A stretch of 64,000 nucleotides of DNA from Chitinophagales bacterium (GTDB taxonomy: Bacteria; Bacteroidota; Bacteroidia; Chitinophagales; Chitinophagaceae). Location of the stretch: contig JBBSJI010000002.1 in assembly GCA_038257425.1 (NCBI GenBank), forward strand, positions 9,940 to 73,939, read 5' to 3'. Below, piece after piece: positions 240 through 54,791 of the stretch. A program made the translations under genes and the position numbers. The notes beneath the pieces are model-generated. The model was not told where the DNA came from and did not search any database. It was given only the letters and a program-made list of their open reading frames with translations. Every line of letters begins with the position of its first letter. Positions within the stretch are counted from its first letter, which is position 1.

Positions 240-3200
240 CTATTGTCCTTTTTTAAGTACGTTCACTTTTAATATAGCTTCATTCACTTCAATTTCCATT
301 CCGTCGTTTAAAACAGGCAAAAAAGTAAGTGAGTCAGCTAGAATTTCGGCGCAAATATAATCTTTATATTGAATTATAGACGGTTGCAGCCCTGCATTTT
401 CACTTACTATTATATCTATCCTGTCAGCCAGGTTAAATCCACTGTCTTTTCTGATATTTTGTATCCTATTTATAAATTCCCGTGCATCCCCTTCTTTTTT
501 CAAATGGTCTGTAATTACTATATCTAAAGCTACTGTTAGCTGTCCTTTTACAGCAACTTCATAGCCCGGTATCTCATCAGTAGAAATTTCCAGGTCCTCG
601 GCATTGATAATAATTGGTTCTTCGCCTGAGGTCTTATAATCAGGATTAAGCAGGTATTCATTTTCTAAAACCTGGTCTATAACCGTATTATCAAAAGCTG
701 AGATCTGTTCAGCAGCCCATTTCATTTTTGGCCCCAATTTTTTACCCAGTGTCTTAAAATTGGCTTTAGCTTTTTTCTTAATAAAATCATTATCGGGTCT
801 CAGCACCTCAACTTCCTTAATATTGGTCTCGGCCTTAATTATTTCGGCTACTTTATTTATACGCTCTGCCATCGTGATATCCAAAGCTGGTATAAAAACT
901 TTTTGCAGTGGCTGCCTCACCTTAAGATTTACTTTCTTGTTTTTGCGAAGCGACAATATCAGTGACGAAATATCCTGGGCCAGCTGCATTCTTTTCTCCA
1001 GATCAACATCAATTACAGTGCCATTCACTTTTGGAAAATCGGTATGATGTACAGATTGTTTGTTGAACCTGTTTGATACGGTATTGAGATTATTGAATAA
1101 CCAATCAGCAAAGAAAGGGGCAACAGGAGCCATCAGTTTGCAAAGTGTTTCAAGACATTCATACAAGGTTTGGTAAGCACAAATCTTATCATGCTCATAT
1201 TCTCCCTTCCAGAACCGGCGGCGACAAAGCCTTACGTACCAGTTACTCAAATGGGCATCTACAAAATCTTCAATAGCACGGCCTACCTGTGTAGGCTCGT
1301 AAGCATCAAAATTTTCCTGTACATCTTTGATTAAACTGTTCAGGGAAGATAAGATCCACTGGTCTATCTCGGGCCTGTCTTTTACGGGGATATAATTTTC
1401 TTTAAAAGCAAATCCATCAACATTGGCGTACAATGCAAAGAACTGGTAGGTGTTGTAAAGCGTACCAAAGAATTTACGTTGCACTTCTTTAATACCTTCG
1501 CTATCAAATTTTAAACTATCCCATGGTGATGCATTGGTGATGAGGTACCAGCGGGTGGCATCGGCACCAAAACTATCAATCGTGGCAAATGGATCAACTA
1601 CGTTGCCAAGGCGCTTACTCATTTTATTACCGGCCTTATCCAAAACCAGTCCGTTACTTACTACGGTTTTATAAGCAACACTGTCGAATAATAGTACAGC
1701 CAATGCATGAAGGGTATAGAACCAGCCTCTTGTTTGGTCAACACCTTCGGCAATAAAATCTGCAGGGAAGGCCCCATCCCAACCTTTCCCAAAGGGGAAG
1801 GGGTTACCACCGTTTACTTTCTCCATATCAAGGCCCCATTGTGCGTAAGGCATGGCGCCGCTATCGAACCAAACATCAATAAGGTCTGGTACCCGTTGCA
1901 TGGGTTTGCCTAAAGGACTTACCAAAGTAATTTCATCCACATAAGGTTTATGCAGGTCAAGTATACCTTCGTGCAGGTAATGTTTATTTGTTTCGCCGCC
2001 CAAAACTTCGGCAGCTTTTTTTATTTCGTTGTTCAGTTCTTCAATTGATCCGATACATTTTTCTTCTTCACCATCTTCGGTTTTCCAAATCGGAAGCGGT
2101 GTACCCCAAAAGCGGCTACGGCTCAGGTTCCAGTCAACCATATTCTCCAGCCAGTTGCCAAAGCGGCCGGTGCCGGTGCTTGCAGGCTTCCAGTTGATGG
2201 TCTTGTTGAGTTCAACCATCCTGTCTTTAACTGCTGTGGTTTTAATGAACCATGCATCAAGAGGATAATAAATAATGGGTTTATCTGTACGCCAGCAATG
2301 CGGATAATTGTGTTCGTATTTTTCAACCTTAAAAGCACGGTTCTCTTTTTTGAGCTTAACAGCAATATCAACATTCACATCCACGTAATCTTTTTCATCT
2401 TTATAATTTTTTACATAGCGGTTGCTGAATTCACCAACGCCCTCAACAAATTTTCCCTGCTTATCAACCAGGGTTAAAATGCCGAGGTTGTTTTTTTGTC
2501 CTGCTTTAAAATCATCTGCACCAAATGCAGGTGCTGTATGTACAATGCCGGTACCATCTTCGGTAGTTACAAAATCGCCAACAATAACTCTGAAAGGTTG
2601 AGCGCTTGGCGTTATTTCCTTAATTTTTTCTAAAGTATTTGCTTCGGAGGGGAGGAGTTGTTCGTAAGAAATGCCTTCAAACTCTTTTCCTTTAAATTCC
2701 GCTATAATTTTCCATGGAATAGCCCCTCCGCCCCCCGAAGGGGAGATCTTAGACACTTCAATGTTACTCAGCTTTTCTGAATATTCACCGAAGTTTCCGT
2801 TTTCATTTTCTACCTTAAAATATTTTGTAACCAATGCTTTTGCAAGAATAACATTAATGGGAAGATGTGTATATGGGTTGAAAGTTTTTACCATTACATA
2901 ATCAATGTTAGGTCCAACAGTCAAGCCTAAGTTGGAAGGTAATGTCCATGGTGTAGTTGTCCAGGCCATAAAGAAAGCCCCCCCACCCCCCGAAGGGTGG
3001 ATTGAAGAAGACTCTGCAATTGCAGAAAAAATCTTAGCAACAGCAGGGTGTTGCTCCCTCTCCTTTGGAGAGGGCTGGGGTGAGGTTTTCAGGAGCCGAA
3101 ACATCGCCACCGCACTCGTATCCTTCACATCCTTATAAGTACCTGGCTGGTTTAATTCGTGTGATGACAAGCCCGTACCGGCAGCAGGTGAGTAAGGCTG

Positions 3201-5371: not shown

Positions 5372-5402
5372 GATGTATGCTTTTAGATAAGATGATTAAT
5401 TT

Positions 5403-24780: not shown

Positions 24781-25500
24781 ATGGCATTACAACCATGGCG
24801 TACCGGTAAAGTTATCCGGGTAGAAAATGAAACGAAGGACACAAAACGATACTGGATTGAGGTGCCTGAGTTAACTACTTTCGATTTTATTCCCGGGCAA
24901 TTTGTAACACTTGATCTCCCTATTCACGAAAAAGCAAATAAGCGCTGGCGAAGTTATTCTATTGCGTCCTGGCCCGATGGCAGCAATGTTTTTGAACTGG
25001 TTATCGTACTGGATAAAAAAGGAGCCGGCACCAATTATATTTTTCATGATGTGAAAGTTGGCTCAGAACTCAGTTTTCGGGGAGCACAGGGCGTTTTCAC
25101 ATTAAGGGAACCTTTGGATAAAGATATTTTCCTGATATGCACCGGTACCGGCATAGCACCTTTCCGGAGCATGGTCAATCATATAAAAAATCAAAACATT
25201 CCTCACCAGCAGGTTCACCTCATTTTTGGATGCCGTACAAAGGATAACATTTTATATTATGATGAAATGAAAAAACTGGAAGAAACCGTTTCTTCTTTTA
25301 AATATATACCAACACTTTCAAGAGAGGAGTGGGATGGTGCTACAGGATATGTGCATCCTATATATGAAGAACTCTGTAAAGATAAAGGGCCGGCCAATTT
25401 TTATTTGTGCGGATGGCGTGGTATGATTGATGAGGCTAAGCAAAGGATCCTGGAAATGGGTTACGATAAAAAAGATATCCATATTGAGATCTATGGTTGA
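24781..25500 (+). CDS. ferredoxin-NADP reductase-type FAD/NAD(P)-binding oxidoreductase
   Basis: 239 aa with RxYS FAD motif (RWRSYSIAS) and GTGIAPF nucleotide-binding motif. Confidence 0.85.
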   Translation: MALQPWRTGKVIRVENETKDTKRYWIEVPELTTFDFIPGQFVTLDLPIHEKANKRWRSYSIASWPDGSNVFELVIVLDKKGAGTNYIFHDVKVGSELSFRGAQGVFTLREPLDKDIFLICTGTGIAPFRSMVNHIKNQNIPHQQVHLIFGCRTKDNILYYDEMKKLEETVSSFKYIPTLSREEWDGATGYVHPIYEELCKDKGPANFYLCGWRGMIDEAKQRILEMGYDKKDIHIEIYG

Positions 25501-25644: not shown

Positions 25645-25995
25645 ATGGGTGCTTCTTCCATGATTGTTTTGATTATTGCAGGGCTTGCATTTTCCATTAT
25701 TACAATTATGGTTGCTAAGGTGCTCACGAAGGGAACAAAAAATGCACAGAAAGGTGAGCCTTACGAATGTGGAATACCTACGCAGGGTAAAACATGGGTA
25801 CAGCTAAACGTAGGCTATTATTTATTTGCTCTTATCTTTTTAATTTTTGATGTAGAACTCATCTTTATTTTTCCATGGGCTGTTGTAGCCAAGTCGGTGG
25901 GCTGGCTTGCTTTGGTAGAGATCATCATTTTCTTTTTTATTTTATTTATGGGATTCTTATATGCACATAAAAAAGGTGCGTTGAAGTGGAAATAG
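25645..25995 (+). CDS. nuoA: NADH-quinone oxidoreductase subunit A
   Basis: 116 aa with 3 TM segments and the conserved PYECG motif. First gene of the nuo cluster. Confidence 0.92.
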   Translation: MGASSMIVLIIAGLAFSIITIMVAKVLTKGTKNAQKGEPYECGIPTQGKTWVQLNVGYYLFALIFLIFDVELIFIFPWAVVAKSVGWLALVEIIIFFFILFMGFLYAHKKGALKWK

Positions 25996-26025
25996 CGCCC
26001 ACCCAAACCCTCCCGAATGGAGGGC
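25996..26025 (-). repeat. GC-hairpin unit D (reverse orientation)
   Basis: CGCCCACCCAAA + CCCTCC-CGAAT-GGAGGG. Begins at the base after the nuoA TAG stop. Confidence 0.8.
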
Positions 26026-26040
26026 TTTAAAGAGTATAAT

Positions 26041-26619
26041 ATGCGGAACAGCTTTTCAAATAATTCAGAGTCTTCAAAAGCCCCTCCGAAGGAGGGGCTT
26101 GGGGAGGCCTCTTTTCCGGGCCAGATACAGGAACTGCCCGGCGGGGGTATTGTATTAAGCAAGCTTGATGAGGTTATCAACTGGGCAAGGTCAAACTCTT
26201 TATGGCCGCTCACCTTTGCTACAAGTTGTTGCGGTATTGAAATGATGGCCGTAGCTTCTGCAAAGTATGATTTCTCAAGATTTGGATTTGAAGTGGCACG
26301 TGCTTCACCGAGGCAGGCAGATGTAATTATTATTGCCGGTACCATAGTAAATAAGATGGGACCGGTTTTAAAAAGATTGTACGACCAGATGGCTGATCCC
26401 AAATACGTGATCGCCATGGGGGCCTGTGCTATAAGTGGCGGACCTTTTTTTTATAATACTTATTCTGTTGTTAAAGGTGCAGATCATATTATACCGGTGG
26501 ATGTATATATACCCGGTTGCCCGCCAAGGCCCGAAGCACTGTTACATGCACTGATAAGCTTACAGGATAAAATAAAAGCCGGTATGACAAGAGAGCAAAT
26601 AAAGACCGGTAAAGAATAA
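26041..26619 (+). CDS. nuoB: NADH-quinone oxidoreductase subunit B
   Basis: Cluster-N2 ligand motifs [15 protein letters not shown] and IPGCPPRPE. The track start at 26017 lies in the loop of hairpin D, so I prefer the ATG at 26041. The N-terminus contains repeat unit E. Confidence 0.93.
26080..26109 (+). repeat. GC-hairpin unit E (forward), translated in nuoB
   Basis: GCCCCTCC-GAA-GGAGGGGC + TTGGGGAGGCC. Encodes [10 protein letters not shown] in the nuoB frame. Confidence 0.85.
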
Positions 26620-26621
26620 TT

Positions 26622-27080
26622 ATGGGGAACGAAGCCTTAAAGACCAAAATAACTGAACTGGTTGCTGCTGCCACTTTTGATGAAACGGGTGAGTGGCTTA
26701 GTATTTCTGTTGACTCCAAAGATTGGCTGCCTCTTGCTCAACAACTTCACTATGAAGAAAACCTACAGTTCGATTATCTTTTCTGTTTAACGTGCATTGA
26801 TTTTAAAGCAAACCTTACGATGGTTTACCATCTTAGCTCAACCATATTCCGGCATAATATAGTTATAAAATCTGTTCTTAATAGAGACAAACCCGAAATT
26901 GAATCTGTAAGTCATATCTGGAAGACGGCGGATTTTCACGAACGGGAAGCATATGAAATGTTTGGTGTAGATTTTTTAAACCATCCCGACCTGAGGTTAT
27001 TGATATTACCTGATGGATGGGAGGGAAAGAATCCGATGCGGAAAGATTTTGAGGATCCGGTGAATATGATCAAATTGTAA
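26622..27080 (+). CDS. nuoC: NADH-quinone oxidoreductase subunit C
   Basis: 152 aa with the 30-kDa subunit motif HEREAYEMFGVDF. Confidence 0.92.
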   Translation: MGNEALKTKITELVAAATFDETGEWLSISVDSKDWLPLAQQLHYEENLQFDYLFCLTCIDFKANLTMVYHLSSTIFRHNIVIKSVLNRDKPEIESVSHIWKTADFHEREAYEMFGVDFLNHPDLRLLILPDGWEGKNPMRKDFEDPVNMIKL

Positions 27081-27081
27081 A

Positions 27082-27106
27082 GCCCCCTCAATCCCCCGAA
27101 GGGGGA
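27082..27106 (-). repeat. GC-hairpin unit F (reverse)
   Basis: GCCCCCTCAA + TCCCCC-GAA-GGGGGA, starting 2 nt after the nuoC TAA stop. Confidence 0.8.
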
Positions 27107-27123
27107 AACAAAGCAAGAGAATA

Positions 27124-28278
27124 ATGTATAGAAATACTGATATAATTAGCGAAGGTTCTCAAAGCCCCTCCTTTGGAGGGGTTGGGGAGGCCGGTGATCT
27201 GATCATCAATGTAGGGCCGCAGCATCCTGCAACACATGGTGTATTGCACCTGGTGATCACCCTTAATGGTGAAACTATTAAAAAGGTAGAGCCGCACCTG
27301 GGTTATATTCACCGCTCTATTGAAAAAATGTGTGAGAGCCTCACCTACCGCCAATTCATTTATGTTACCAGCCGCATGGATTATCTCTCTGCCCATATCA
27401 ATAACCAGGCCTGTGCGTTAACGGTAGAGAAAGGTTTGCAGGTGGAGGTTCCCGAAAGGGCTCAAGTGATTAGAGTGCTTATGGCAGAACTTACAAGAAT
27501 TGCATCGCATGAATTATGGTGGGGTGCTATGGCCATGGATATTGGTGCGTTCACACCTTTCTTTCATGCGTTCAGGGAAAGAGAGACCATTAATGATATC
27601 ATGGAAGAAACCTGCGGTGCCAGGTTAACCATGAATTATATGGTGCCTGGTGGCGTAATGCAGGAACTGCATCCCGACTTTCAAAAGAAGGTAAAAGAAT
27701 TCATCACGCTCTTTAAATCGAAAGTGCATGAGTATGATGAAATGGTTACGGGTAATATTATTTTTCAAAACCGGATGAAGGGTGTAGGTATCTTATCAAA
27801 AGAAGATGCGATTTCTTTTGGTTGCACGGGCCCTACAGGCAGGGGGAGTGGCCTGAGTTGTGATATCAGGAAATTATATCCTTACGATGCTTATAGTAAA
27901 GTGCAGTTTGAGGAGATCATTGAAACAGCCGGCGATTCACTGGCCCGTTACATGGTACGCATAAAAGAACTGCATCAATCCATACATATAATAGAACAAT
28001 TGATAGATAATATTCCCGAAGGAGATTTTCAGGCTAAGACAAAAGCCGTTTTAAAATTACCCAAGGGTGAGTTTTACCAAAGAGTGGAAACAGCAAGAGG
28101 AGAGTTTGGTGTGTACATAGTAAGTGAAGGTGGCATGACACCTTACCGGATCAAATTCCGTTCACCAGGATTTTCAAATCTTTCAGCATTGGATCATATG
28201 GCAAGAGGGAGTAAGCTGGGAGATTTGGTGGCGATGATGGGAACACTTGATTTGGTGATACCGGATATTGACAGATAA
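27124..28278 (+). CDS. nuoD: NADH-quinone oxidoreductase subunit D
   Basis: 384 aa with NVGPQHPATHGVLHLV and C-terminal DLVIPDIDR. The N-terminus contains repeat unit G. Confidence 0.95.
   Translation: MYRNTDIISEGSQSPSFGGVGEAGDLIINVGPQHPATHGVLHLVITLNGETIKKVEPHLGYIHRSIEKMCESLTYRQFIYVTSRMDYLSAHINNQACALTVEKGLQVEVPERAQVIRVLMAELTRIASHELWWGAMAMDIGAFTPFFHAFRERETINDIMEETCGARLTMNYMVPGGVMQELHPDFQKKVKEFITLFKSKVHEYDEMVTGNIIFQNRMKGVGILSKEDAISFGCTGPTGRGSGLSCDIRKLYPYDAYSKVQFEEIIETAGDSLARYMVRIKELHQSIHIIEQLIDNIPEGDFQAKTKAVLKLPKGEFYQRVETARGEFGVYIVSEGGMTPYRIKFRSPGFSNLSALDHMARGSKLGDLVAMMGTLDLVIPDIDR
27164..27192 (+). repeat. GC-hairpin unit G (forward), translated in nuoD
   Basis: GCCCCTCC-TTT-GGAGGGG + TTGGGGAGGCC. 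Encodes SPSFGGVGEA. Near-identical to unit E. Confidence 0.85.
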
Positions 28279-28283
28279 AAAAA

Positions 28284-28372
28284 TAATAATGAACAAGGAA
28301 CAAGGAATCCCGAACAAGGAAGTGGGTATTCCGATTGTTATTCATAATTCCTTGTTCCTTGTTCGATATTCA
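28284..28372. repeat. tandem-arm long hairpin X1 (GAACAAG-repeat arms)
   Basis: Left arm AATAATGAACAAGGAACAAGGAAT, right arm ATTCCTTGTTCCTTGTTCGATATTCA, giving an 18-bp perfect stem. Fills the nuoD-nuoH spacer. Arms are identical to X2. Confidence 0.9.
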
Positions 28373-28376
28373 TAAG

Positions 28377-29453
28377 ATGTGGAGTTTAAATAAAATATCG
28401 TCTTCCATTCAGGATTGGTTGAACCAAACATTCGATCCAACCTGGTCATTGATCTTTCAAATGCTCATTGCAGGCATTGCTGTGATCAGCCTGTTTGCTG
28501 TGCTGGGTTTAGTTTTAGTGTTGATGGAAAGAAGGGTTGCCGCCTGGATGCAGATCAGGCTGGGACCCAACCGGGTTGGTCCAAAAGGTTTATTACAATC
28601 CTTCGCTGATACTTTAAAATTGTTGGTGAAAGAAGGTTTAACTCCAAATGGTGCTGATAAATTCTTATTCAACCTGGCACCTATCATTGCATTGGTTGTT
28701 GCTATGCTTTTAATGGCACCTATTGCTTTTGCAAAAGATTTTCAACTCTGGAATTTAAATATAGGCGTACTGTATGTATCAGCAGTTTCTTCCATTATGA
28801 TCATCAGTATTTTAATGGCAGGCTGGGCAAGCAATAATAAATATTCATTGATGGGCGCTATGCGTAGCGGTGCACAGATCGTAAGCTATGAATTATCTGC
28901 AGGCCTTTCCATTCTTACGATAGTTGTATTAACAGGCAGCCTGAATATTTCCGACATCATTTATTCGCAGGCAGATGGCTGGTGGATATTTAAAGGACAT
29001 ATACCCGTAATCATTTCGTTTGTAATATTTATAATTGCCGTTACTGCAGAAACCAACCGGGCGCCTTTTGACCTGGCAGAAGCAGAATCAGAATTGACTG
29101 CAGGGTTTCATACTGAATATTCAGGGATGAAATTCGCCTTGTTCTTTTTAGCAGAGTATGTAAATGTATTTATTGTATGTGCTATTGGAGCCACATTGTT
29201 TTTAGGTGGATGGATGCCTTTACATATTGGTAACTGGGAAGGCTTTAATCATGTGATGGATTATATTCCATCCAGCGTATGGTTCTTTGGAAAAACGTTC
29301 TTCCTGATCTTTGTAATTATGTGGTTCAGGTGGACATTCCCCCGCCTCCGTATTGACCAGTTATTGAATTTAGAATGGAAATATTTGTTACCGATAAGTA
29401 TGTTTAATCTACTGTTGGTTACAGCGATCGCAATATTGGGATGGCATTTTTGA
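28377..29453 (+). CDS. nuoH: NADH-quinone oxidoreductase subunit H
   Basis: Motifs RLGPNRVGPKGLLQ and TAETNRAPFDLAEAESEL. I moved the start to 28377 because the track start at 28335 translates the X1 repeat arm (IPCSLFDIHK). Confidence 0.93.
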   Translation: MWSLNKISSSIQDWLNQTFDPTWSLIFQMLIAGIAVISLFAVLGLVLVLMERRVAAWMQIRLGPNRVGPKGLLQSFADTLKLLVKEGLTPNGADKFLFNLAPIIALVVAMLLMAPIAFAKDFQLWNLNIGVLYVSAVSSIMIISILMAGWASNNKYSLMGAMRSGAQIVSYELSAGLSILTIVVLTGSLNISDIIYSQADGWWIFKGHIPVIISFVIFIIAVTAETNRAPFDLAEAESELTAGFHTEYSGMKFALFFLAEYVNVFIVCAIGATLFLGGWMPLHIGNWEGFNHVMDYIPSSVWFFGKTFFLIFVIMWFRWTFPRLRIDQLLNLEWKYLLPISMFNLLLVTAIAILGWHF

Positions 29454-29476
29454 CCCCCAGCCCCCTGAAGGGGGAG
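29454..29476 (-). repeat. GC-hairpin unit H (reverse)
   Basis: CCCCCAG + CCCCC-TGAA-GGGGG, beginning at the base after the nuoH TGA stop. Confidence 0.75.
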
Positions 29477-29541
29477 TATTGCGAAGATTGTGTTGTAAAT
29501 ATTGTAGAAGTATTGAAGTAATAAAATTATAGTGTTATAAT

Positions 29542-30078
29542 ATGAGTGATGATTTAAAAAATAAAGACTTCAAAACTCCCCCCTTGGGGGGCGGGGGGGC
29601 TGGTTGGGGGGTTCAGTATTTTAAAGATATTTTCAATGCAATTAAGTCGCTGCTCATTGGCATGCGCCGTACAGGTTATTATTTTACGCATCACAAGGAG
29701 ATCATCACACAGCAATATCCTGATAACCGGGAAACATTGAATTTGCCGGAACGCTTTAAAGGCGAAGTGATCTTACTGCATGATGAAAACAATGAGCACG
29801 CCTGCACCGGTTGTACTGCCTGTGAGCTGGCATGTCCCAATGCAACTATAAAAATTGTTACGCAATTCGATATTACACCCGAAGGCAAAAAGAAAAAAGC
29901 ATTGGACAAATTTGTGTATCACCTTGAGCTGTGTACCTTATGCAATCTGTGTATCATCGCTTGCCCTACGGATGCTATAAAAATGGCACAGACATTTGAA
30001 CACAGTGTTTTTGACAGGGCAGAGCTGACTAAAATTTTAAATAAACCCGGTTCTAAAATAAGAGAAGGTATCGAGTAA
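29542..30078 (+). CDS. nuoI: NADH-quinone oxidoreductase subunit I
   Basis: Two CxxCxxCxxxCP motifs (CTGCTACELACP, CTLCNLCIIACP). The N-terminus contains repeat unit I. Confidence 0.93.
   Translation: MSDDLKNKDFKTPPLGGGGAGWGVQYFKDIFNAIKSLLIGMRRTGYYFTHHKEIITQQYPDNRETLNLPERFKGEVILLHDENNEHACTGCTACELACPNATIKIVTQFDITPEGKKKKALDKFVYHLELCTLCNLCIIACPTDAIKMAQTFEHSVFDRAELTKILNKPGSKIREGIE
29569..29611 (+). repeat. GC-hairpin unit I (forward), translated in nuoI
   Basis: TTCAAAA + CTCCCCCC-TT-GGGGGG + CGGGGGGGCTGGTTGGGGGG. Encodes KTPPLGGGGAGWG. Confidence 0.75.
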
Positions 30079-30139
30079 TAATCAGATGAGAAAAGAGAAA
30101 CAGTCGAAATGCTTAATTAATTAAGTTAAATCATAAAAT

Positions 30140-30186
30140 TAAAGCCCGGCCTCTCCCGATAATTATCGGGAGAACGAGGGTGAGGC
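30140..30186 (+). repeat. GC-hairpin unit J (forward, variant stem)
   Basis: GCCCGGCC + TCTCCCGAT-AATT-ATCGGGAGA + ACGAGGGTGAGGCC, in the nuoI-nuoJ spacer. Confidence 0.7.
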
Positions 30187-30204
30187 CATGATTGACCGGC
30201 CTGC

Positions 30205-30232
30205 TGTCATCCTGAGCGGTAGCGAAGGATCT
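30205..30232 (+). repeat. GTCATCCTGAGCGGTAGCGAAGGATCTC motif (half-unit of the third repeat family)
   Basis: Shares the GTCAnCCTGAG core with the left arm at 41151. Lies in the nuoI-nuoJ spacer. Confidence 0.4.
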
Positions 30233-30269
30233 CTTGCTGAGACTAAAAAATTGAATACGAATAATAGTT

Positions 30270-30845
30270 ATGACAGGATCTGCAATTATATTCTATTTAC
30301 TGGCCGCACTTACATTAGGAAGTGCATGGTTGGCTGTTACCACCAGGATGATCTTCAGGGCGGCAATTTATCTTTTGTTTGCGCTGATAGGTATTGCAGG
30401 TATTTATTTCTGGCTGCAATACGAATTTATTGCTGCTGTTCAGATCGTGGTGTATGTAGGAGGAATCGTAGTAATTATCATTTTTTCAATTTTCCTTACT
30501 CAGCAGGCAGGCGATCTTTTACCTAAACAGAAATTAGGCAGGCAAATATTTTCAGCACTGGCTGCATTTTGTGGAATGGCATTAGTAATGCTGCAGTTGG
30601 CACAACATGAATTTGTTGCAACTGCTAATGCTGCGATTGAACCTAGTGTAGCCAATATCGGATACCAGATGTTGGGAACAGATGATAATGGTTATGCATT
30701 GCCATTTGAAGTGGTAAGTATTTTATTGCTGGCTGCATTGATCGGTTGTATTGTGATTGCGGCCCCCTCTGAACTTCGTTCTTTCCCTGGCGGGAACCCC
30801 AAAGGGGGAGAAAAAACCCTTAGTTCAACCGAAAATAATACTTGA
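30270..30845 (+). CDS. nuoJ: NADH-quinone oxidoreductase subunit J
   Basis: 191 aa with 5 TM segments, positioned between nuoI and nuoK. The last ~27 aa are read through repeat unit L. Confidence 0.9.
   Translation: MTGSAIIFYLLAALTLGSAWLAVTTRMIFRAAIYLLFALIGIAGIYFWLQYEFIAAVQIVVYVGGIVVIIIFSIFLTQQAGDLLPKQKLGRQIFSALAAFCGMALVMLQLAQHEFVATANAAIEPSVANIGYQMLGTDDNGYALPFEVVSILLLAALIGCIVIAAPSELRSFPGGNPKGGEKTLSSTENNT
30761..30810 (-). repeat. GC-hairpin unit L (reverse; compound/degenerate), translated as the nuoJ tail
   Basis: GGCCCCCTCTGAA (compare unit K, GGCCCCTCTAAA) + TTCCC-TGGC-GGGAA + CCCC-AAA-GGGG. Encodes AAPSELRSFPGGNPKGGE. Confidence 0.45.
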
Positions 30846-30883
30846 GTAACATGGAATTTATAATTATAAAAACTGTTAAAAAT

Positions 30884-30916
30884 GTCCTCCCTTTCGGGGA
30901 GGATTTAGGAGGGGCC
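30884..30916 (+). repeat. GC-hairpin unit M (forward)
   Basis: TCCTCCC-TTTCG-GGGAGGA + TTTAGGAGGGGCC, ending 2 nt before the nuoK ATG. Confidence 0.75.
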
Positions 30917-30918
30917 GC

Positions 30919-31236
30919 ATGATGATAGAACCTGGACTATATCAATTGCTTTTTATTAGTACTGCACTGTTCTTCATTGGTGTGTACGGGTTCTTTACCC
31001 GGCGCAACCTCGTTACTATGCTCATGAGTGTTGAGTTGATATTGAACAGCGTGAACCTGAATTTTATTGCATTCAATAAATATTTGTGGTACGACAAACT
31101 GGATGGAGTTTTCTTCACCATTTTTATTATTGCCATTGCAGCCGCAGAAGCGGCGGTTGCCATAGCTATCATAATTAATTTATACCGAAGTCATAAATCT
31201 ATTGATGTGGAGAATGCGGAAGAGATGAAATTTTAA
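30919..31236 (+). CDS. nuoK: NADH-quinone oxidoreductase subunit K
   Basis: 105 aa with 3 TM segments and conserved Glu residues in the membrane helices (SVELILNS, AAAEAAV). Confidence 0.92.
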   Translation: MMIEPGLYQLLFISTALFFIGVYGFFTRRNLVTMLMSVELILNSVNLNFIAFNKYLWYDKLDGVFFTIFIIAIAAAEAAVAIAIIINLYRSHKSIDVENAEEMKF

Positions 31237-31239
31237 TAA

Positions 31240-31270
31240 CCTCACCCCAACCCCTCTCCAAAGGAGAGGG
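31240..31270 (-). repeat. GC-hairpin unit N (reverse)
   Basis: CCTCACCCCAA + CCCTCTCC-AAA-GGAGAGGG, 3 nt after the nuoK TAA stop. Its flank is the exact reverse complement of the unit O flank. Confidence 0.85.
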
Positions 31271-31383
31271 AACTGGGAGATCGAAGCGGTGAGGTGCGGA
31301 GAATTCAGTTTTAGTTTTAAAAGTTTAGGTCTTAATTTGGAACAATGATTCAAAATTTGAGAAGTATTTTTTAATAACCGATA

Positions 31384-31422
31384 TCAAACCCCCTCTCTTT
31401 AAGGAGAGGGTTGGGGTGAGGT
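31384..31422 (+). repeat. GC-hairpin unit O (forward)
   Basis: TCAAA + CCCCCTCTC-TTTAA-GGAGAGGG + TTGGGGTGAGGT, ending 4 nt before the nuoL ATG. Confidence 0.85.
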
Positions 31423-31426
31423 AATA

Positions 31427-33445
31427 ATGCCAAACACAACTTACATAACACTGATCATCTTGCTGCCACTGGCAGGCTTTATAATGCTTGGGCTTTTTGG
31501 TAGAAGATATTTTACTAAAACCTCCGGCGTTATAGGAACAGCATTGTTATTGGTTTCAACCCTGCTTGCCTTACATACTGCTTATAGCTATTTCTTTGAG
31601 TATGGAAAAGTGAATGGTGTTTATCAAAAATTAGTTCCACTTAAATATACATGGTTACAATTTTCCGAGGGCGTATCAATTGATATGGGGATCATCATCG
31701 ATCCCATCTCTGTAATGATGCTAATAGTGGTATCCTTTATTTCTTTAATGGTGCATATCTATAGCCTTGGTTATATGAAAGGCGATGAAAGATTCCCTAC
31801 TTATTTTGCATTCCTGGGGTTGTTTACTTTTTCTATGCTGGGACTGGTTATTTCTTCTAACATTTTCCAGATCTATATTTTTTGGGAGCTGGTGGGTGTT
31901 TCCTCTTTCCTGCTGGTTGGCTATTATTATGATAAACCCAGTGCAGTTGCTGCCTGCAAAAAAGCTTTTATTGTAACAAGGTTTGCCGATGTGGGCTTTT
32001 TGATCGGCATTTTAATCCTGTCTTTTTATTCAGGCACATTAGATTTTAATACATTGATCGCAACACTCACTTCTCCTGAAACCAATGGCTATAAAAATGC
32101 AGTGGCAGCATCTTTCCTGGGTGTTTCTGCATTAACCTGGGGATTAGTATTAGTGTTCATCGGTGCTGCTGGCAAGAGTGCGATGTTTCCTTTACATATC
32201 TGGCTGCCCGATGCGATGGAAGGCCCAACACCAGTCTCAGCATTGATACATGCTGCTACCATGGTGGTTGCCGGCGTTTTTTTAGTGGCAAGATTATTTC
32301 CCGTGTTTGCCATTTCAGCTCCCGGGGCTTTGAGCCTTGTTGGTTATGTTGGCGCCATCTCTGCATTATTTGCAGCAGTGATAGCCTGCACACAAACAGA
32401 TATTAAACGGGTGTTGGCTTATTCCACGATGAGCCAGATAGGATACATGATGTTTGCACTAGGTGTTTCAAAATACGGTGGCGAGGAAAGCCTGGGTTAC
32501 ACCGCATCTATGTTTCATTTGTTCACACATGCCATGTTTAAAGCATTGTTGTTTTTAGGCGCAGGTGCTGTAATACATTATATACACAGCAACGAAATGA
32601 AAGACATGGGTGGGTTAAGAAAATATTTACCCATCACCCATATTACTTTTTTAATTGCCTGCCTGGCTATTGCAGGTGTGCCGCCGTTTGCAGGGTTCTT
32701 CAGCAAAGAAGAGATCCTATTGGCTGCTTATCAAAATAACCAGGCCATTTACTGGATAGCATTGATCACTTCCGGCTTAACAGCTTTTTATATGTTCCGT
32801 TTGTACTTCAATATTTTCTGGAGCAAAGACCATCACGCACATACTCAACAGCATGCTACCGAGTTGAAATCTGAAATTACGGAAGCTGTGGCTCCCTCTC
32901 CTTTGGAGAGGGAGGGGGGTGAGGTCCATAAAGGTGAAGGTGGATTTACTATGATGATGCCTTTAGTATTATTAGCTATTGGCGCAGCAGCTGCAGGCTT
33001 TATTCCTTTCGGTCATTTTGTTAGCTCCGATGGAACAAGGCTGGAAGCTGAATTCCATTTGCAGTTTTCCATTGCTCCTGTGGCACTTGGACTGGCAGGA
33101 ATTTTTATTGCTATGTGGATGTATAAAAAAGAAAATAATAAACCCGATAGGTTTGTTGCTTCGCTGCATGGGTTATACAAAGCGGCTTATCATAAATTCT
33201 ATATTGATGAGATCTATTTGTTCATCACAAAAAAAATAATTTTTAATCTCATCGGCAGGCCGGCAGCATGGTTTGATAAAAATGTAGTTGATGGAATGGT
33301 GAATGCAACCGGCAATGGCACAAAAGATATTTCAGAAATTATAAAAAGTTTTCAATCAGGTAAGGTACAGCAATATGCTATTTACTTTTTGGTAAGTGTT
33401 ATTGGCCTGGCATTGCTGTTTATATACGTTTGGAACCCCCGCTAA
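31427..33445 (+). CDS. nuoL: NADH-quinone oxidoreductase subunit L
   Basis: 672 aa antiporter-like subunit with a long C-terminal extension. Contains in-frame repeat unit P. Confidence 0.95.
   Translation: MPNTTYITLIILLPLAGFIMLGLFGRRYFTKTSGVIGTALLLVSTLLALHTAYSYFFEYGKVNGVYQKLVPLKYTWLQFSEGVSIDMGIIIDPISVMMLIVVSFISLMVHIYSLGYMKGDERFPTYFAFLGLFTFSMLGLVISSNIFQIYIFWELVGVSSFLLVGYYYDKPSAVAACKKAFIVTRFADVGFLIGILILSFYSGTLDFNTLIATLTSPETNGYKNAVAASFLGVSALTWGLVLVFIGAAGKSAMFPLHIWLPDAMEGPTPVSALIHAATMVVAGVFLVARLFPVFAISAPGALSLVGYVGAISALFAAVIACTQTDIKRVLAYSTMSQIGYMMFALGVSKYGGEESLGYTASMFHLFTHAMFKALLFLGAGAVIHYIHSNEMKDMGGLRKYLPITHITFLIACLAIAGVPPFAGFFSKEEILLAAYQNNQAIYWIALITSGLTAFYMFRLYFNIFWSKDHHAHTQQHATELKSEITEAVAPSPLEREGGEVHKGEGGFTMMMPLVLLAIGAAAAGFIPFGHFVSSDGTRLEAEFHLQFSIAPVALGLAGIFIAMWMYKKENNKPDRFVASLHGLYKAAYHKFYIDEIYLFITKKIIFNLIGRPAAWFDKNVVDGMVNATGNGTKDISEIIKSFQSGKVQQYAIYFLVSVIGLALLFIYVWNPR
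32891..32925 (+). repeat. GC-hairpin unit P (forward), translated inside nuoL
   Basis: GCTCCCTCTCC-TTT-GGAGAGGGAG + GGGGGTGAGGT. Encodes APSPLEREGGEV. The first 22 nt are identical to unit C in ileS. Confidence 0.85.
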
Positions 33446-33459
33446 TTCTCCGCCGAGAA
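33436..33459 (-). repeat. possible degenerate GC-hairpin unit S (reverse) overlapping the nuoL stop
   Basis: CCCCCGCTAA + TTCTC-CGCC-GAGAA. Weak similarity to the F/K flank-plus-hairpin layout. Confidence 0.25.
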
Positions 33460-33523
33460 AAAGCGCTGGAATTATTTTAAAGTTGAAATGGAAGAACAAA
33501 TGTTTATTAATGATTTTAAAAAC

Positions 33524-33563
33524 CGCTCCTTCCCTATCGGGGAAGGAGAAGGAGGATGGGGCC
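33524..33563 (+). repeat. GC-hairpin unit Q (forward)
   Basis: CTCCTTCCC-TATCG-GGGAAGGAG (9-bp stem) + AAGGAGGATGGGGCC. Overlaps the first possible nuoM ATG. Confidence 0.75.
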
Positions 33564-35040
33564 GATGAATCTATCATTTTTGATATTGTTGCCACTGCTC
33601 ACTGCAATACTCATATTGCTGATGAAGAATGCTGCACAGGTTAAGTGGGTGGCACTGGCAGGCGCAACAGCCCAGTTGGTATTGAGTTTTGTATTACTTT
33701 ATCTTTTTCGTGAGCAGCAGGCTGATCGGAATACCACACAAATGTTATTTGAGCAACAATATGATTGGTTCCCTTCCTGGAACATCAGTTTCCATTTTGG
33801 AGTTGACGGTATTTCTGTGGCCATGATCTTATTAACAGCTTTTGTAGTCATCGCCGGTGTGCTGGTTTCCTGGAATGTAACCAAAATGACAAAGGAGTTT
33901 TATTTCCTCCTCATTTTATTAAGTCTTGGTGCATATGGTTTCTTTATTTCGCTTGACCTGTTCATCTTATTTTTCTTTTTAGAAATCGCTGTTATTCCCA
34001 AATATTTACTCATCGGTATCTGGGGAAGTGGTAAAAAAGAATACAGTGCCAATAAACTGGCGCTGATGCTGATGGGCGGCTCTGCACTGGTGTTGGTTGG
34101 CCTGCTCGGGGTTTATTTTTCCAATACTACACATAGTTTTGATTTAATGTACCTATCTCAAATCAATATCCCAATAAAAACACAGATGATCTGTTTCCCT
34201 TTATTGTTTGTGGGTTTTGGTGTATTCACAGCTTTGTTTCCTTTTCATACCTGGGTACCCGATGGTCACTCGTCTGCACCTACAGCAGGGTCTATGTTTC
34301 TTGCCGGCATTTCTATGAAGCTTGGTGGTTACGGTTGTTTACGTGTGGCAACATACATTATGCCCGAAGGTGCAAAGGAATATGCGGAGATCATCATTGT
34401 ACTTTCTGTCATTGCCATTTTATATGGAGCCTTTGCTACCATGATGCAGAAGGATCTTAAATATATCAATGCCTATTCATCGGTGAGTCATTGCGGATTT
34501 GTTTTACTGGGTATTGGGATGCTCACCAGAACATCCATGACAGGTGCGGTGATGCAAATGGTTTCGCATGGTTTAATGACGGCACTTTTCTTTGCTATCA
34601 TCGGCATGATCTACGAACGCACACACACCAGGCAGGTGAGTGAGATGGGAGGGTTGTTAAAGAAGATGCCTTTTATCATCTCTGTATTGTTCATTGTTGG
34701 TTTGTGTTCACTAGGTTTACCCGGACTGAGTGGTTTTGTAGCAGAGATGACCGTGTTCATGGGTTCCTGGGAACATCCTGATACATTTAGAAGGGTAGCA
34801 ACAATTCTTGCATGTCTTTCTATTGTTGTAACAGCCGTTTATATTTTACGGGCTGTTACAAAAACAGCCATGGGCCCATTAAAGGAAGGATTTGAAAGTT
34901 TGACCGATGCAACCTGGAATGAAAAATTAGCAGCACTGATACTGATAGCCGGAATTATTGCGATTGGTGTTGCACCATTCTGGCTGAATGACCTGGTTAG
35001 CCCGGGAGCGGAAGTGATTATGAATAAAATTGGTAAATAA
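33556..35040 (+). CDS. nuoM: NADH-quinone oxidoreductase subunit M
   Basis: 494 aa antiporter-like subunit. The first ATG (33556) lies in the repeat Q flank; alternative ATG at 33565 (MNLSFLILL). Confidence 0.94.
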   Translation: MGPMNLSFLILLPLLTAILILLMKNAAQVKWVALAGATAQLVLSFVLLYLFREQQADRNTTQMLFEQQYDWFPSWNISFHFGVDGISVAMILLTAFVVIAGVLVSWNVTKMTKEFYFLLILLSLGAYGFFISLDLFILFFFLEIAVIPKYLLIGIWGSGKKEYSANKLALMLMGGSALVLVGLLGVYFSNTTHSFDLMYLSQINIPIKTQMICFPLLFVGFGVFTALFPFHTWVPDGHSSAPTAGSMFLAGISMKLGGYGCLRVATYIMPEGAKEYAEIIIVLSVIAILYGAFATMMQKDLKYINAYSSVSHCGFVLLGIGMLTRTSMTGAVMQMVSHGLMTALFFAIIGMIYERTHTRQVSEMGGLLKKMPFIISVLFIVGLCSLGLPGLSGFVAEMTVFMGSWEHPDTFRRVATILACLSIVVTAVYILRAVTKTAMGPLKEGFESLTDATWNEKLAALILIAGIIAIGVAPFWLNDLVSPGAEVIMNKIGK

Positions 35041-35052
35041 CATTGCTAAATA

Positions 35053-35158
35053 AATAATGAACAAGGAACAAGGAATTTCGAATGATGAGCGTCCGCAAGC
35101 GTCTGCGGAGAATTTCGAACTTCTGAAGTCAATATTCCTTGTTCCTTGTTCGATATTC
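35053..35158. repeat. tandem-arm long hairpin X2
   Basis: Same 24-nt and 26-nt arms as X1, with a longer centre containing an inner hairpin TCCGCA-AGCGTC-TGCGGA and a direct repeat GAATTTCGAA x2. Fills the nuoM-nuoN spacer. Confidence 0.9.
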
Positions 35159-35168
35159 AAATAAAAAT

Positions 35169-36569
35169 ATGCTAAATGATTTTTTAATATTAATGAAACC
35201 TGAACTGCTGTTAACCGGTATCATTTTCCTGTTGCTGTTCATCAAGATCGGCAAAGGTTTAAAAAATGATACCATGCTGTTATTGGTACAGGTGCTGTTA
35301 TTACTGAATTTTATTTTCGGTTTCTTTTTTAATACAGATGGCTCATTGTTTGATGGTATGTACGTAACTACAAACATGATCGTGTTGCAGAAAAGTATTC
35401 TAAGCCTGGGTGTTTACCTGATCTCTTTATTATTTGCAGATTGGTTTAAGAAAAGTGAACACATGCCCGAGTTCTTTATGCTGATGTTATCAGCATTGCT
35501 GGGTATGTTCTTCCTTATTTCGAGCGGTAACCTGCTGATGTTCTTTTTAGCTTTGGAATTATCTACTATTCCCGTAGCTGCCATGGCAAATTTCGATCTT
35601 GATAAAAAAAGATCTTCTGAAGCGGCCATGAAGATGATCCTGTCTTCGGCATTCTCTTCCGGTATTTTATTGTTTGGTATTTCATTGATATATGGAGCAA
35701 CCGGTACAATCAGTTTTGCTGAAATTCCACAGCAGCTTAATGGCAGCCCTTTACAGATCCTTGCATTGGTATTCCTGTTTTCAGCATTTGCTTTTAAATT
35801 ATCTATTGTTCCCTTTCATTTATGGACGGCAGATGTATATGAAGGATCACCGATGGCTGTTACTTCGTTTCTTTCTGTTATATCCAAAGGAGCTGTTGCA
35901 TTTATTTTTATGGCAACACTGTATAAAGTGTTTCAGCCCATGCAGGAAACCTGGTACAACCTGGTGATGATCCTGTCCATAGCTACCATGATCATCGGTA
36001 ACCTGTTTGCATTACGTCAACAAAATATAAAACGCTTTCTTGCCTTTTCCTCCATTGCTCAGGTTGGTTTTATTTTAGTAGGTATCAGCAGTAATTCCAT
36101 TGAAGGAACAACATCGGTTGTTTATTTTATTTTGATCTATGTGTTTTCAAACCTGGCAGCATTTGGTGTGGCTGCAGCCATTGCAGCAAAAGCTAACCGG
36201 GAAAATATTGATGATTATAAAGGTTTGTACCAGACCAATCCTTTCCTGAGCTGGGTATTGGCACTGGCTTTATTTTCACTGGCCGGTATTCCGCCAACTG
36301 CAGGCTTCTTTGGTAAATTATTCTTATTAACTGCCGGTGCATCAAAAGGCAGCTATCTTTTCATTACGATTGCTGCACTAAATATGATCATTTCCCTGTA
36401 TTATTATTTACGTGTTGTACGGTCTGTGTTTATGGAAAAGAATGAACAGCCGGTAGAAAAAGTGGCGATCGAACCCTCTGCAAAATTTGCATTGATCATT
36501 TGCAGCGCAGGCATAATTTTAGTTGGCTTATTAAGCTGGATATATGATTACATACAAAACCTGGTTTAG
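35169..36569 (+). CDS. nuoN: NADH-quinone oxidoreductase subunit N
   Basis: 466 aa antiporter-like subunit. I moved the start to 35169 because the track start at 35139 translates the X2 repeat arm. Confidence 0.93.
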   Translation: MLNDFLILMKPELLLTGIIFLLLFIKIGKGLKNDTMLLLVQVLLLLNFIFGFFFNTDGSLFDGMYVTTNMIVLQKSILSLGVYLISLLFADWFKKSEHMPEFFMLMLSALLGMFFLISSGNLLMFFLALELSTIPVAAMANFDLDKKRSSEAAMKMILSSAFSSGILLFGISLIYGATGTISFAEIPQQLNGSPLQILALVFLFSAFAFKLSIVPFHLWTADVYEGSPMAVTSFLSVISKGAVAFIFMATLYKVFQPMQETWYNLVMILSIATMIIGNLFALRQQNIKRFLAFSSIAQVGFILVGISSNSIEGTTSVVYFILIYVFSNLAAFGVAAAIAAKANRENIDDYKGLYQTNPFLSWVLALALFSLAGIPPTAGFFGKLFLLTAGASKGSYLFITIAALNMIISLYYYLRVVRSVFMEKNEQPVEKVAIEPSAKFALIICSAGIILVGLLSWIYDYIQNLV

Positions 36570-36643
36570 AAGTTTAGGAGTTTAGAAGATTAGTTGAGTA
36601 ATCTCCTGGACCCTAAACCCCTAAACCCCTAAACCCCTAAACT
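36564..36643. repeat. tandem-arm hairpin Y with CCCCTAAA octamer array
   Basis: The left arm GTTTAGAAGTTTAGGAGTTTAGAAG opposes the right arm CCCTAAACCCCTAAACCCCTAAACCCCTAAACT. Overlaps the nuoN stop and ends 5 nt before the next ATG. Confidence 0.8.
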
Positions 36644-36648
36644 ATAAA

Positions 36649-37047
36649 ATGGCTATAAATAAAAATCACGAATTTGAAGAACTGGATGGCGTTAAATGTG
36701 GCATCGTGGAAAAGAATGTATCGCCCGAAAGAGTTGCCTTCCTGAAAAAATTACTGGAGTATAATAAATTTACGGTGGTGGTTGTTCCATCTTCTCCACC
36801 AAAAGTAGCGGCGGCTCCTGCTGTAAAAGCTGTAGAGGGAGAAGAGACGCCGGCACCACCGGCACCTGCGTCTGCAGCACCTGAAACATTCACCGTTGGT
36901 GTAACAGACTACACATACAATACAATCAATGCAATTTACGGGCGGTTGCTTAAAACACCTGATGGGCATGTAGTTACCATGGCTTACTGGCATCAAAAAG
37001 AAGCTGTGAGCCAGGATGAGATCCCTTATTATGAAGATGTAAGCTAG
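36649..37047 (+). CDS. hypothetical protein with Pro/Ala-rich linker
   Basis: 132-aa ORF with two small globular segments joined by PSSPPKVAAAPAVKAVEGEETPAPPAPASAAP. No family recognised. Confidence 0.6.
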   Translation: MAINKNHEFEELDGVKCGIVEKNVSPERVAFLKKLLEYNKFTVVVVPSSPPKVAAAPAVKAVEGEETPAPPAPASAAPETFTVGVTDYTYNTINAIYGRLLKTPDGHVVTMAYWHQKEAVSQDEIPYYEDVS

Positions 37048-41117: not shown

Positions 41118-41150
41118 AAAAAATAATTTTAGTTTTTAAGCAATCATTAT

Positions 41151-41216: not shown

Positions 41217-41233
41217 TCTCATTATTAATTATA

Positions 41234-54763: not shown

Positions 54764-54791
54764 GCCCCTCTAAATCTCCCCCAAGGGGAGA
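54764..54791 (-). repeat. GC-hairpin unit K (reverse)
   Basis: GCCCCTCTAAA + TCTCCCC-CAA-GGGGAGA, beginning at the base after the nrdJ TAG stop. Confidence 0.8.

Follow-up and report, generated by a model that had tools for sequence, protein, structure and literature searches.

Palindromic repeats at nuo gene junctions of a Chitinophagaceae bacterium look like remnants of site-preferring selfish cassettes

The nuo operon and the repeats at its junctions

The nuo operon of a Chitinophagales bacterium, contained in a 64,000-nt stretch of contig JBBSJI010000002.1 (GenBank assembly GCA_038257425.1; this whole stretch is hereafter the window), carries palindromic repeats at almost all of its gene junctions, and we characterized these repeats together with their counterparts in related genomes and the gene-carrying cassettes that share their ends. 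The operon comprises 11 genes (A, B, C, D, H, I, J, K, L, M and N; 25645..36569, forward strand), with nuoE, nuoF and nuoG not among them, and was delimited from open reading frames (ORFs) and their translations, Pfam matches for NuoB, NuoD, NuoI and NuoL, and gene calls on a matching Logan contig. The best relatives of its NuoD are found in Ferruginibacter and other Chitinophagaceae metagenome-assembled genomes (identity up to 97%). For comparison we used 80 related Chitinophagaceae nuo loci with 10-kb flanks (loci are numbered with the prefix L, and junctions are written as A|B for nuoA|nuoB), the controls for repeat density being the 53 kb of the window outside nuo and 628 kb of flanks in the 80 loci.

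A first-pass annotation had described one palindromic repeat occupying nine of the ten intercistronic junctions of nuo and the 3′ end of the operon. Upon re-reading the sequence, the junction contents stood as annotated and nine of ten junctions, together with the junction between nuoN and the next gene, were indeed occupied; the last element is not at the end of the operon, since a syntenic gene follows it, and the repeats fall into four or more unrelated families rather than one. Not all units are intercistronic: three (E, G and I) lie in N-terminal coding parts, one is within nuoL and a degenerate one is in the 3′ coding end of nuoJ.

Four junctions carry a pair of G/C-rich hairpin units (GC units), the first on the reverse and the second on the forward strand. 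Junction A|B holds unit D directly after the nuoA stop codon (25996..26024, reverse; CCCTCC-attcg-GGAGGG-ttt-GGGTGG) and unit E (26080..26112, forward; GCCCCTCC-gaa-GGAGGGGC-tt-GGGGAGGCC), which is translated in the N-terminus of NuoB. B|C is a 2-nt gap. C|D holds unit F directly after the nuoC stop (27081..27106, reverse; TCCCCC-ttc-GGGGGA-ttg-AGGGGG) and unit G (27165..27192, forward; CCCCTCC-ttt-GGAGGGG-tt-GGGGAGG), translated in the variable N-terminal linker of NuoD, and H|I holds unit H, which overlaps the nuoH stop by 1 nt (29453..29474, reverse; CCCCCT-tc-AGGGGG-ct-GGGGGT), and unit I (29578..29612, forward; CCCCCC-tt-GGGGGG-c-GGGGGG and a further G run), translated in the N-terminus of NuoI. 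No later in-frame start is available downstream of units E, G or I. The K|L junction contains unit N (31238..31270, reverse; CCCTCTCC-ttt-GGAGAGGG-gttg-GGGTGAGG), which belongs to the subfamily of the E. coli motif TMECO no. 1, and unit O (31391..31422, forward; CCCTCTC-tttaag-GAGAGGG-ttg-GGGTGAG), which ends just 5′ of the nuoL ATG.

Other junctions hold single GC units. In I|J, unit J (30146..30188, forward; GGCC-TCTCCCG-ataattat-CGGGAGA-acg-AGGGTGAGGCC) has an imperfect mirror, and members of its subfamily occupy K|L of L003 and L056, while L005 has a close variant there (stem TCCCTCTC); beside it lies a GTCATCCTGAG unit of a separate repeat family (GTCATCCTGAGCGGTAGCGAAGGATCTC; 30205..30235, forward), to which a palindrome at 41149-41217 is related. 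J|K holds unit L (30885..30916, forward; TCCTCCC-tttcg-GGGAGGA-ttt-AGGAGGG), which ends 2 nt 5′ of the nuoK ATG, and the 3′ coding end of nuoJ contains a degenerate reverse GC unit (30762..30815), a weak call read directly from the sequence; NuoJ homology in relatives stops near residue 168. In L|M, unit Q (33526..33563, forward; CTCCTTCCC-tatcg-GGGAAGGAG-aag-GAGGATGGG) overlaps the start region of nuoM, and a further forward GC unit is an in-frame insertion within nuoL (32892..32926).

The remaining junctions are occupied by long hairpins with a 7-nt periodicity, all on the forward strand. X1 (28285..28373; AATAATGAACAAGGAACAAGGAAT ... ATTCCTTGTTCCTTGTTCGATATT) fills D|H and X2 (35053..35165), with the same arms, fills M|N, while Y (36563..36645), a GTTTAGR / CCCTAAAC heptamer palindrome, sits in the junction between nuoN and the gene for a conserved 132-aa protein (36649-37047) that follows; this protein has no Pfam match, and its gene is syntenic in nearly all 80 relatives. 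The predicted RNA folds of X1, X2 and Y have z-scores of -5.9, -5.4 and -3.6, respectively, and almost all X elements point the same way with respect to transcription. A heptamer-periodic hairpin with X-like arms (GTTTCTTGTT... / ...AACAAGAAAC) also lies at 63867-63979, after the last complete gene, and is the only such element outside nuo within the window; an X-type element was found in a viral contig of 67% GC as well. A mini-ORF running through the X elements (ATGAACAAGGAA...) was considered as a translational relay and rejected, as it runs open across the whole element in 18 of 36 copies, approximately what chance gives for arms that are free of stop codons in every frame, and a search with its peptide matched nothing beyond the copy in the window.

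Structure of the GC units and their concentration at nuo

Each GC unit consists of a pyrimidine arm, a loop, the complementary purine arm, a linker and finally the mirror image of the purine arm, which is neither its complement nor a direct copy. In a collection of 120 hairpins with pure pyrimidine and purine arms, both strands of each being scored and no condition placed on the tail, a perfect mirror of the purine arm followed 1-5 nt downstream in 97; the 97 units measured have stems of 6-10 nt, first loops of 2-6 nt (mode 3) and linkers of 1-5 nt (mode 3). Among asymmetric arms, mirror copies outnumbered direct copies by 83 to 9, and a permuted-arm control, in which arms were swapped between units, fell far below the observed match (z ~15). 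Arms and tail covary over 33 distinct arms according to a simple code (G to G 532, A to A 101, A to T 37). The units usually form inverted pairs with their tails outward, and both orientations occur.

This layout is that of an intrastrand triplex motif (ITxF), defined by pyrimidine, purine and reverse-Hoogsteen purine blocks that follow each other on one strand (PMC4666352): stems and loops of the units fall within the ITxF ranges (6-15 and 1-6 nt), and the mirror tail supplies the class II triplets (G*G.C and A*A.T / T*A.T). Judged from their sequence, the GC units are class II (purine-motif) intrastrand triplex motifs of the BoxC/PIT/TMECO kind, for which REP (repetitive extragenic palindromic) or Correia elements, the families invoked in the first-pass annotation, serve as analogies only. 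As single-stranded DNA in vitro, class II motifs from E. coli (TMECO oligonucleotides) form a very stable triplex by circular dichroism and nuclear magnetic resonance, whereas RNA reportedly does not form purine-motif triplexes (Holder et al. 2015, PMC4666352, citing Hoyne et al. of the Maher laboratory, 2000). On that account, the conserved third strand points to a structure of single-stranded DNA, and such a DNA-type strand would probably suit a role in propagation better than one in mRNA.

The GC units are a structural class rather than one sequence family, as a single-family model failed at a mean column identity of 47%. E. coli TMECO no. 1 (CCCTCTCCCTGTGGGAGAGGGCCGGGGTGAGGGC) matches units N and O, the nuoL-internal unit and a unit at 3056-3085 almost base for base; these four come near the strict TMECO form (CCCTCTCC...GGAGAGGG...GGGGTGAGG) with stems of 7-10 nt, and the stems of the other units differ. 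The strict TMECO/BoxC consensus (CCCTCNCCC N3-6 GGGNGAGGG N3 GGGNGAGGG) is therefore not that of the window's units as a set, nor are these always intergenic and free of operon bias, given the in-frame copies in nuoB, nuoD, nuoI, nuoL and ileS and the density at nuo described below. The ileS copies (2969..3092) are an inverted pair of GC units in frame in the ORF at 240-3740 (reverse), and correspond exactly to ~38 extra residues (query 217-254) relative to solved IleS structures. Elsewhere in the window, unit K (54764..54791, reverse) abuts the stop codon of a class II ribonucleotide reductase gene. Degenerate copies exist as well, namely unit J, the copy in the nuoJ 3′ end and one partner of the ileS pair.

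The unusual density of GC units at nuo that had been noticed in the first-pass annotation was borne out, both in the window and in relatives. A strict detector (pyrimidine/purine hairpin plus G-rich tail) found 11 GC units in the window against ~0.2 in order-1 Markov shuffles, and 10 of the 12 well-formed (perfect or near-perfect) units lie in nuo, which makes up 17% of the window (binomial p=1e-6). Across the 80 loci, 88 perfect units fall in nuo and 9 in the flanks, a 9-fold difference per kb; nuo is the denser part in 24 loci and the flank in none (p=1e-7), and counted per junction the frequencies are 56/727 in nuo and 4/394 in flanks (p=2e-7). Six of the nine flank units surround atpC, encoding ATP synthase epsilon (L050 1854-2548, L056 4097-4749), which suggests that a second energy operon has been hit. 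The X family behaves alike, with 27 copies in nuo and 3 outside in one count and, in a pattern scan, 39 in nuo and no convincing flank copy. From this genuine enrichment, repeated in many related genomes, we conclude that a non-random process is at work at nuo.

Junctions vary widely in how often they are occupied, and their contents change quickly. C|D, D|H and H|I are each filled in ~25% of genomes and B|C in 1 of 74 (1%); relatives with 91-97% NuoD identity have different families or an empty gap at the same junctions, and close relatives bear X/Y-type and further heptamer families at various nuo junctions. The operons of L003 and L027 are compact, with 2-20-nt gaps, from which we infer that the ancestral operon was compact and that its junctions were filled repeatedly and differently. 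Comparison of the empty L003 with the filled window, L004 and L001 places the insertion exactly between stop and start codon.

The association with nuo is a property of the lineage rather than of the unit itself. In a metagenome scan for the CCCTCTCC subfamily, which returned at least 120 loci chosen only for carrying a unit, contigs spanned 18-72% GC, and none of the listed loci contained a clear nuo operon (two had weak partial NuoD or NuoI matches, with the unit not adjoining); the unit is thus spread over very different bacteria, specificity of the unit for nuo is rejected, and the concentration at nuo is a lineage phenomenon. Among the matches listed, 21 of 55 units with a defined gene context on low-GC contigs lie inside long ORFs. 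Of 43 reverse units in nuo, 36 start within 0-5 nt of the stop that precedes them; the idea that the stop codon is part of the unit was nevertheless abandoned, since the tail lies 0-4 nt from a stop in only 11 of 142 metagenome units (again among the matches listed), and the tight abutment in nuo is therefore mostly a consequence of compact junctions. The G-rich tails were also considered as Shine-Dalgarno sequences of nuoK, nuoL and nuoM, for which their spacing fits, yet the mirror rule holds equally inside ORFs and in reverse orientation. Bacteroidota are in any case said not to rely on Shine-Dalgarno pairing.

Gene-carrying cassettes with the same ends

Where nuo junctions of relatives hold insertions of more than 330 nt, these encode small genes on the sense strand (12 of 12 inserted ORFs in the 80 loci, and likewise the cassette genes in every later look-up), and the first kind of these genes encodes a DUF559 protein between triplex-type units. 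In L001, the closest relative (97% NuoD identity), the nuoD|nuoH junction consists of TAA, a 35-nt inverted repeat (AACCCCCTCCGCCCCCTAAAGGGGGAACTTTGGAG), a DUF559 gene (122 aa, E=1e-31), the reverse-complement repeat, ‘at’ and ATG; the empty junction sequence is GACAGATAAAAAATGTGGAG. Unit H of the window has hairpin arms and a mirror tail identical to the ends of this cassette, with a different linker (ct vs cgga). DUF559 adjoins units in 7 of the at least 120 metagenome loci, which had been selected solely by the unit. Reciprocally, in ten DUF559 loci (L001 and nine reached through DUF559 homologues of the L001 protein) a reverse unit lies upstream in all ten and an intact forward unit downstream in six, and by site seven of the ten occupy nuoD|nuoH, two lie in a miaB-like junction and one follows smpB. 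In L100, one of the seven metagenome loci (contig Ga0302186_10000016), the MetH ORF (3421-7623) includes in frame both an inverted pair of units (3952-3984 and 4352-4384) and, exactly between them, a DUF559 domain. The leucyl-tRNA synthetase (LeuRS) ORF of L193 carries two in-frame units.

The same neighbourhood is found in E. coli K-12 (NC_000913.3, 1351205-1351760; L208), where TMECO no. 9 lies 168 nt downstream of ycjD, a gene annotated as DUF559; this association goes unmentioned in the 2015 TMECO survey, according to which no mobility function was ever found nearby (PMC4666352), and our literature search found no paper tying DUF559 to triplex motifs. The VSR/DUF559 clade (Vsr-like PD-(D/E)XK) includes a group I intron homing endonuclease of the I-Bth0305I type (PMC3424549), and the best solved relative of DUF559 is 3HRL. 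Homing is a candidate function on account of this fold-level kinship, and the recurrence at nuoD|nuoH in seven loci is consistent with it. Several close DUF559 homologues (P0003, P0013, P0014, P0021 and others) bear the Joint Genome Institute labels ‘cyclase’ or ‘HisF’, which hints at a further recurrent insertion site beside hisF.

The second kind of cassette carries a PF05635 gene (‘23S rRNA intervening sequence protein’, a four-helix bundle), present in nuo junctions of eight fetched loci. All eight genes are bracketed by inverted repeats of 23-56 nt that are 76-91% complementary and heptamer-periodic, the arms being X-type in L018, L040 and L045 and of a Y-like GTTTRAG type in L051 and L061. 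Three further homologues from a protein look-up, two at nuoJ|K and one at nuoM|N, have X-type arms in every case, and overall inverted repeats with at least 15 matched bases are found in 11 of 11 and X-type arms in 6 of 11. Cassettes of this kind at nuoJ|K occur on many contigs and in the isolate Ginsengibacter hankyongi, and a complete one with X-type arms lies at M|N in L223. This is the arrangement of 23S rRNA intervening sequences, that is, a PF05635 gene or none within a long inverted-repeat stem, and since these genes are bracketed by X/Y-type arms, X1, X2 and Y would be gene-less versions of the same cassettes. For both kinds, gene-less copies share terminal inverted repeats with a gene-carrying element (triplex units with DUF559 ends, X arms with PF05635 arms), as is typical of miniature inverted-repeat transposable elements (MITEs).

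Further mobile genes use the same junctions. An IS200-like Y1 transposase with its own REP array lies in nuoL|M of L056 (16226-17078) and L078 (14112-14975), and also in L041 (14417-14848); the flanking arrays are GCTCCGTAGGAGC...GTTAGTAG repeats, unlike triplex units, and constitute a system of REP and REP-associated tyrosine transposase (RAYT) type inside the nuo operon. The triplex units themselves flank DUF559 rather than a Y1 transposase, and so differ from REP/REPIN-RAYT systems, in which that transposase lies between the same repeats. ORF6N genes (184 aa) occupy nuoH|I in sense orientation in L061 (12733-13287) and L080 (5086-5640). The GTCAnCCTGAG...CGAAGG repeat family, represented in the window at the two positions given above (30205-30235 and 41149-41217), recurs in L209 at about 3385-3425; in L209 and L210 a copy is nested in the triplex-unit hairpin at the right end of a DUF559 cassette.

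Within the window, no transposase was present among the ORFs scanned against Pfam, and scans of the whole window returned no Rfam family and no tRNA. A small gene of the PD-(D/E)XK_3 family (PF13366; 49832-50206, reverse) is another nuclease-family gene in the window and, in our impression, possibly a selfish one. An FNR-like FAD/NAD-binding oxidoreductase gene (24781-25500) precedes the nuo operon, and a pyruvate:ferredoxin oxidoreductase gene (41234-44809) lies near it. Exact-protein look-ups for strain-level presence or absence yielded a single public contig with an identical NuoC (L207, Logan SRR19962009, 11833 nt), whose end falls within nuoK, shortly before the K|L repeats. DUF559 and PF05635 homologues are in many cases located on contigs of 0.5-3 kb, and the repeats may break short-read assemblies.

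Origin of the repeats and comparison with known systems

Overall, the palindromes have more the look of mobile DNA that prefers to land at this site than of signals evolved to act in RNA. On balance we think it probable that the nuo junction repeats are ORF-less, MITE-like derivatives of two types of site-preferring selfish cassette that insert repeatedly and then lose their gene, and the insertion targeting proposed in the first-pass annotation accordingly gains support from DUF559 cassettes at nuoD|nuoH (at least seven loci) and PF05635 cassettes at nuoJ|K and nuoM|N. In the proposed mechanism, cassettes would insert in sense into conserved housekeeping operons, at the exact boundary between one stop codon and the start codon that follows. 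Type 1 would be a DUF559 gene (Vsr-like PD-(D/E)XK endonuclease) within ~35-nt inverted triplex-motif repeats with tails outward, of which D/E, F/G, H/I, N/O, the ileS pair and the single units would be leftovers without the gene; type 2 would be a PF05635 gene within inverted 7-nt-periodic arms, with X1, X2 and Y as the hairpins that stay behind after gene loss. The DUF559 nuclease is predicted to drive spread, either through homing or through a structure-specific cut at triplex or hairpin ends. A preference for stop/start junctions of very conserved co-transcribed genes seems likely, and nuo may be favoured because its very conserved coding flanks offer recurrent targets. Cassette genes would be expressed from transcription of the host operon, and insertions could be tolerated through in-frame read-through, A-rich start contexts supplied by the elements and hairpins that fold away in the mRNA. 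Subsequent gene loss would leave the inverted-repeat pairs and hairpins of the window, and any effects on mRNA processing or stability would be secondary.

A broader proposal, which we advance tentatively and rate at slightly less than an even chance, is that BoxC/PIT/TMECO elements in general are the terminal inverted repeats of widespread DUF559 cassettes homing into stop/start and permissive in-frame sites, that heptamer hairpins are the ends of PF05635 cassettes, and that nuo of the Chitinophagaceae is the place where both kinds preferentially home, so that the window displays the decay products of an ongoing invasion.

Several points weigh against a cassette origin. As the window itself contains no cassette gene, the link is drawn from common end sequences and from relatives; neither a target-site duplication nor a demonstrable insertion event emerged from the comparison of empty L003 with the filled window, L004 and L001. 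Cassettes at the same junction could reflect vertical inheritance with losses instead of repeated homing, and action of DUF559 on the cassette ends is a prediction. We know of no mobility function for PF05635. The density contrast at nuo is one with the remainder of the window and the flanks of 80 loci rather than with whole genomes, and the uneven occupancy of junctions and constant sense orientation of X elements are also expected from selection at the level of the transcript.

The last point belongs to an alternative already raised in the first-pass annotation, in which selection maintains the hairpins as structures that act in cis within the polycistronic nuo mRNA: hairpins after a stop or before a start would confer segmental stability, X/Y stems would be RNase III sites, and folding would couple stop to start. 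RNase III is known to cleave the stems of 23S rRNA intervening sequences, and strong RNA folds are predicted at nuo, for the H|I pair (-58.7 kcal/mol, z -7.4) as for X1, X2 and Y; the close abutment of reverse units to stops, the fixed X orientation and an occupancy that depends strongly on the junction across lineages and families likewise agree with it. We nevertheless consider such selection unlikely. The conservation of the mirror tail agrees with a purine-motif triplex of DNA, a structure that RNA reportedly does not adopt, and E. coli PIT elements showed neither promoter nor terminator activity (both PMC4666352). GC units also occur in both orientations, inside the ORFs of ileS, nuoL, MetH and LeuRS, and across phyla on contigs of widely differing GC content with no link to nuo, while some close relatives are fully compact and whole selfish genes occupy the very same sites.

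Quite unlikely, in our estimate, is neutral trapping, whereby elements insert anywhere and persist longer in tight junctions of important genes, where only precise excision is tolerated, while at other places they would be lost through ordinary deletions. The piling up of several unrelated families at the same junctions, the filling of the entire stop-start space, the degenerate copies (unit J, the nuoJ 3′ end and the ileS partner) and the nested insertions in L209 and L210 would all follow from it. Targets of 2-20 nt, however, would rarely be struck at random, yet larger intergenic flanks hold far fewer copies; the units are structurally perfect rather than decayed, and closely related DUF559 genes recur exactly at nuoD|nuoH, as PF05635 genes do at nuoJ|K. 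Trapping would account for persistence and not for near-identical cassette genes at one junction. Finally, an artefact of chance or composition, for which the short stems (6-10 bp) of G/C-rich palindromes in an AT-rich genome and the low identity between units might speak, is excluded by the shuffle and permutation controls, the three-way covariation over 33 arms and the enrichment statistics.

BoxC and PIT elements have been catalogued since the 1990s without a gene or mechanism of spread, and DUF559 is a concrete and testable candidate, tied to them in three ways, namely in nuo of the closest relative, on unrelated metagenome contigs and as the neighbouring ycjD in E. coli. The enigmatic PF05635 proteins of rRNA intervening sequences are now linked to hairpin cassettes inside a protein-coding operon. 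Moreover, nuo of the Chitinophagaceae provides a natural system for selfish insertion between, or in frame within, essential genes without breakage, in which the RNA-processing idea can be tested too. Our literature searches for nuo with repeats, or for Chitinophagaceae with palindromes, gave nothing; triplex motifs are of a known kind, and what appears to be new is the concentration at nuo, the occurrence of copies in frame and, most of all, the connection with DUF559 and PF05635 cassettes.

The closest known counterpart is the BoxC/PIT/TMECO group, with which the GC units share the block order, the G*G.C, A*A.T and T*A.T code, the frequent inverted pairs and loci that vary between close strains. 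They differ in that the stems in the window are diverse (6-10 nt), several units are translated in frame, and copies cluster in a single operon, in contrast to the lack of any operon or functional bias in E. coli; the DUF559 link likewise contrasts with the study of the E. coli motifs, which found no mobility gene nearby (PMC4666352). REP/REPIN-RAYT systems resemble ours as short structured repeats that form inverted doublets, often lie at gene ends and outnumber a single-copy gene flanked by the same repeats, but the gene here is of the PD-(D/E)XK-type DUF559 family and not a Y1 transposase, the GTAG head is absent and a triplex tail is present; true REP-RAYT elements with different repeats (GCTCCGTAGGAGC) occur in nuoL|M of L056 and L078.

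Rickettsia palindromic elements (RPE) are palindromic repeats that lie in frame in genes which stay open, a likeness to the in-frame palindromes found here, although their sequence and host phylum are unrelated and, to our knowledge, they have neither a triplex tail nor an associated nuclease gene. The 23S rRNA intervening sequences share with the X/Y elements long inverted-repeat stems with a PF05635 (S23p) gene or none, in a conserved and highly transcribed locus; here the host is instead a protein-coding operon, the arms are tandem heptamers and the stems are known from sequence alone. T4-like phages carry free-standing homing endonuclease genes between conserved genes. As in the nuo junctions, these are small nuclease genes in sense orientation between conserved co-transcribed genes, with a presence that varies among relatives, whereas structured inverted-repeat ends and abundant gene-less derivatives belong to the nuo elements, for which homing is predicted, and not to the phage genes. 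Heptamer tandem repeats, finally, are known from cyanobacteria (short tandemly repeated repetitive sequences, STRR). In Bacteroidetes, TAACTGA heptamers are tandemly repeated beside start codons, also within operons (PMC4679880). The X/Y elements share the 7-nt periodicity and a position a few nt upstream of starts, but differ in that their heptamers build inverted arms that form hairpins and are able to enclose a PF05635 gene.

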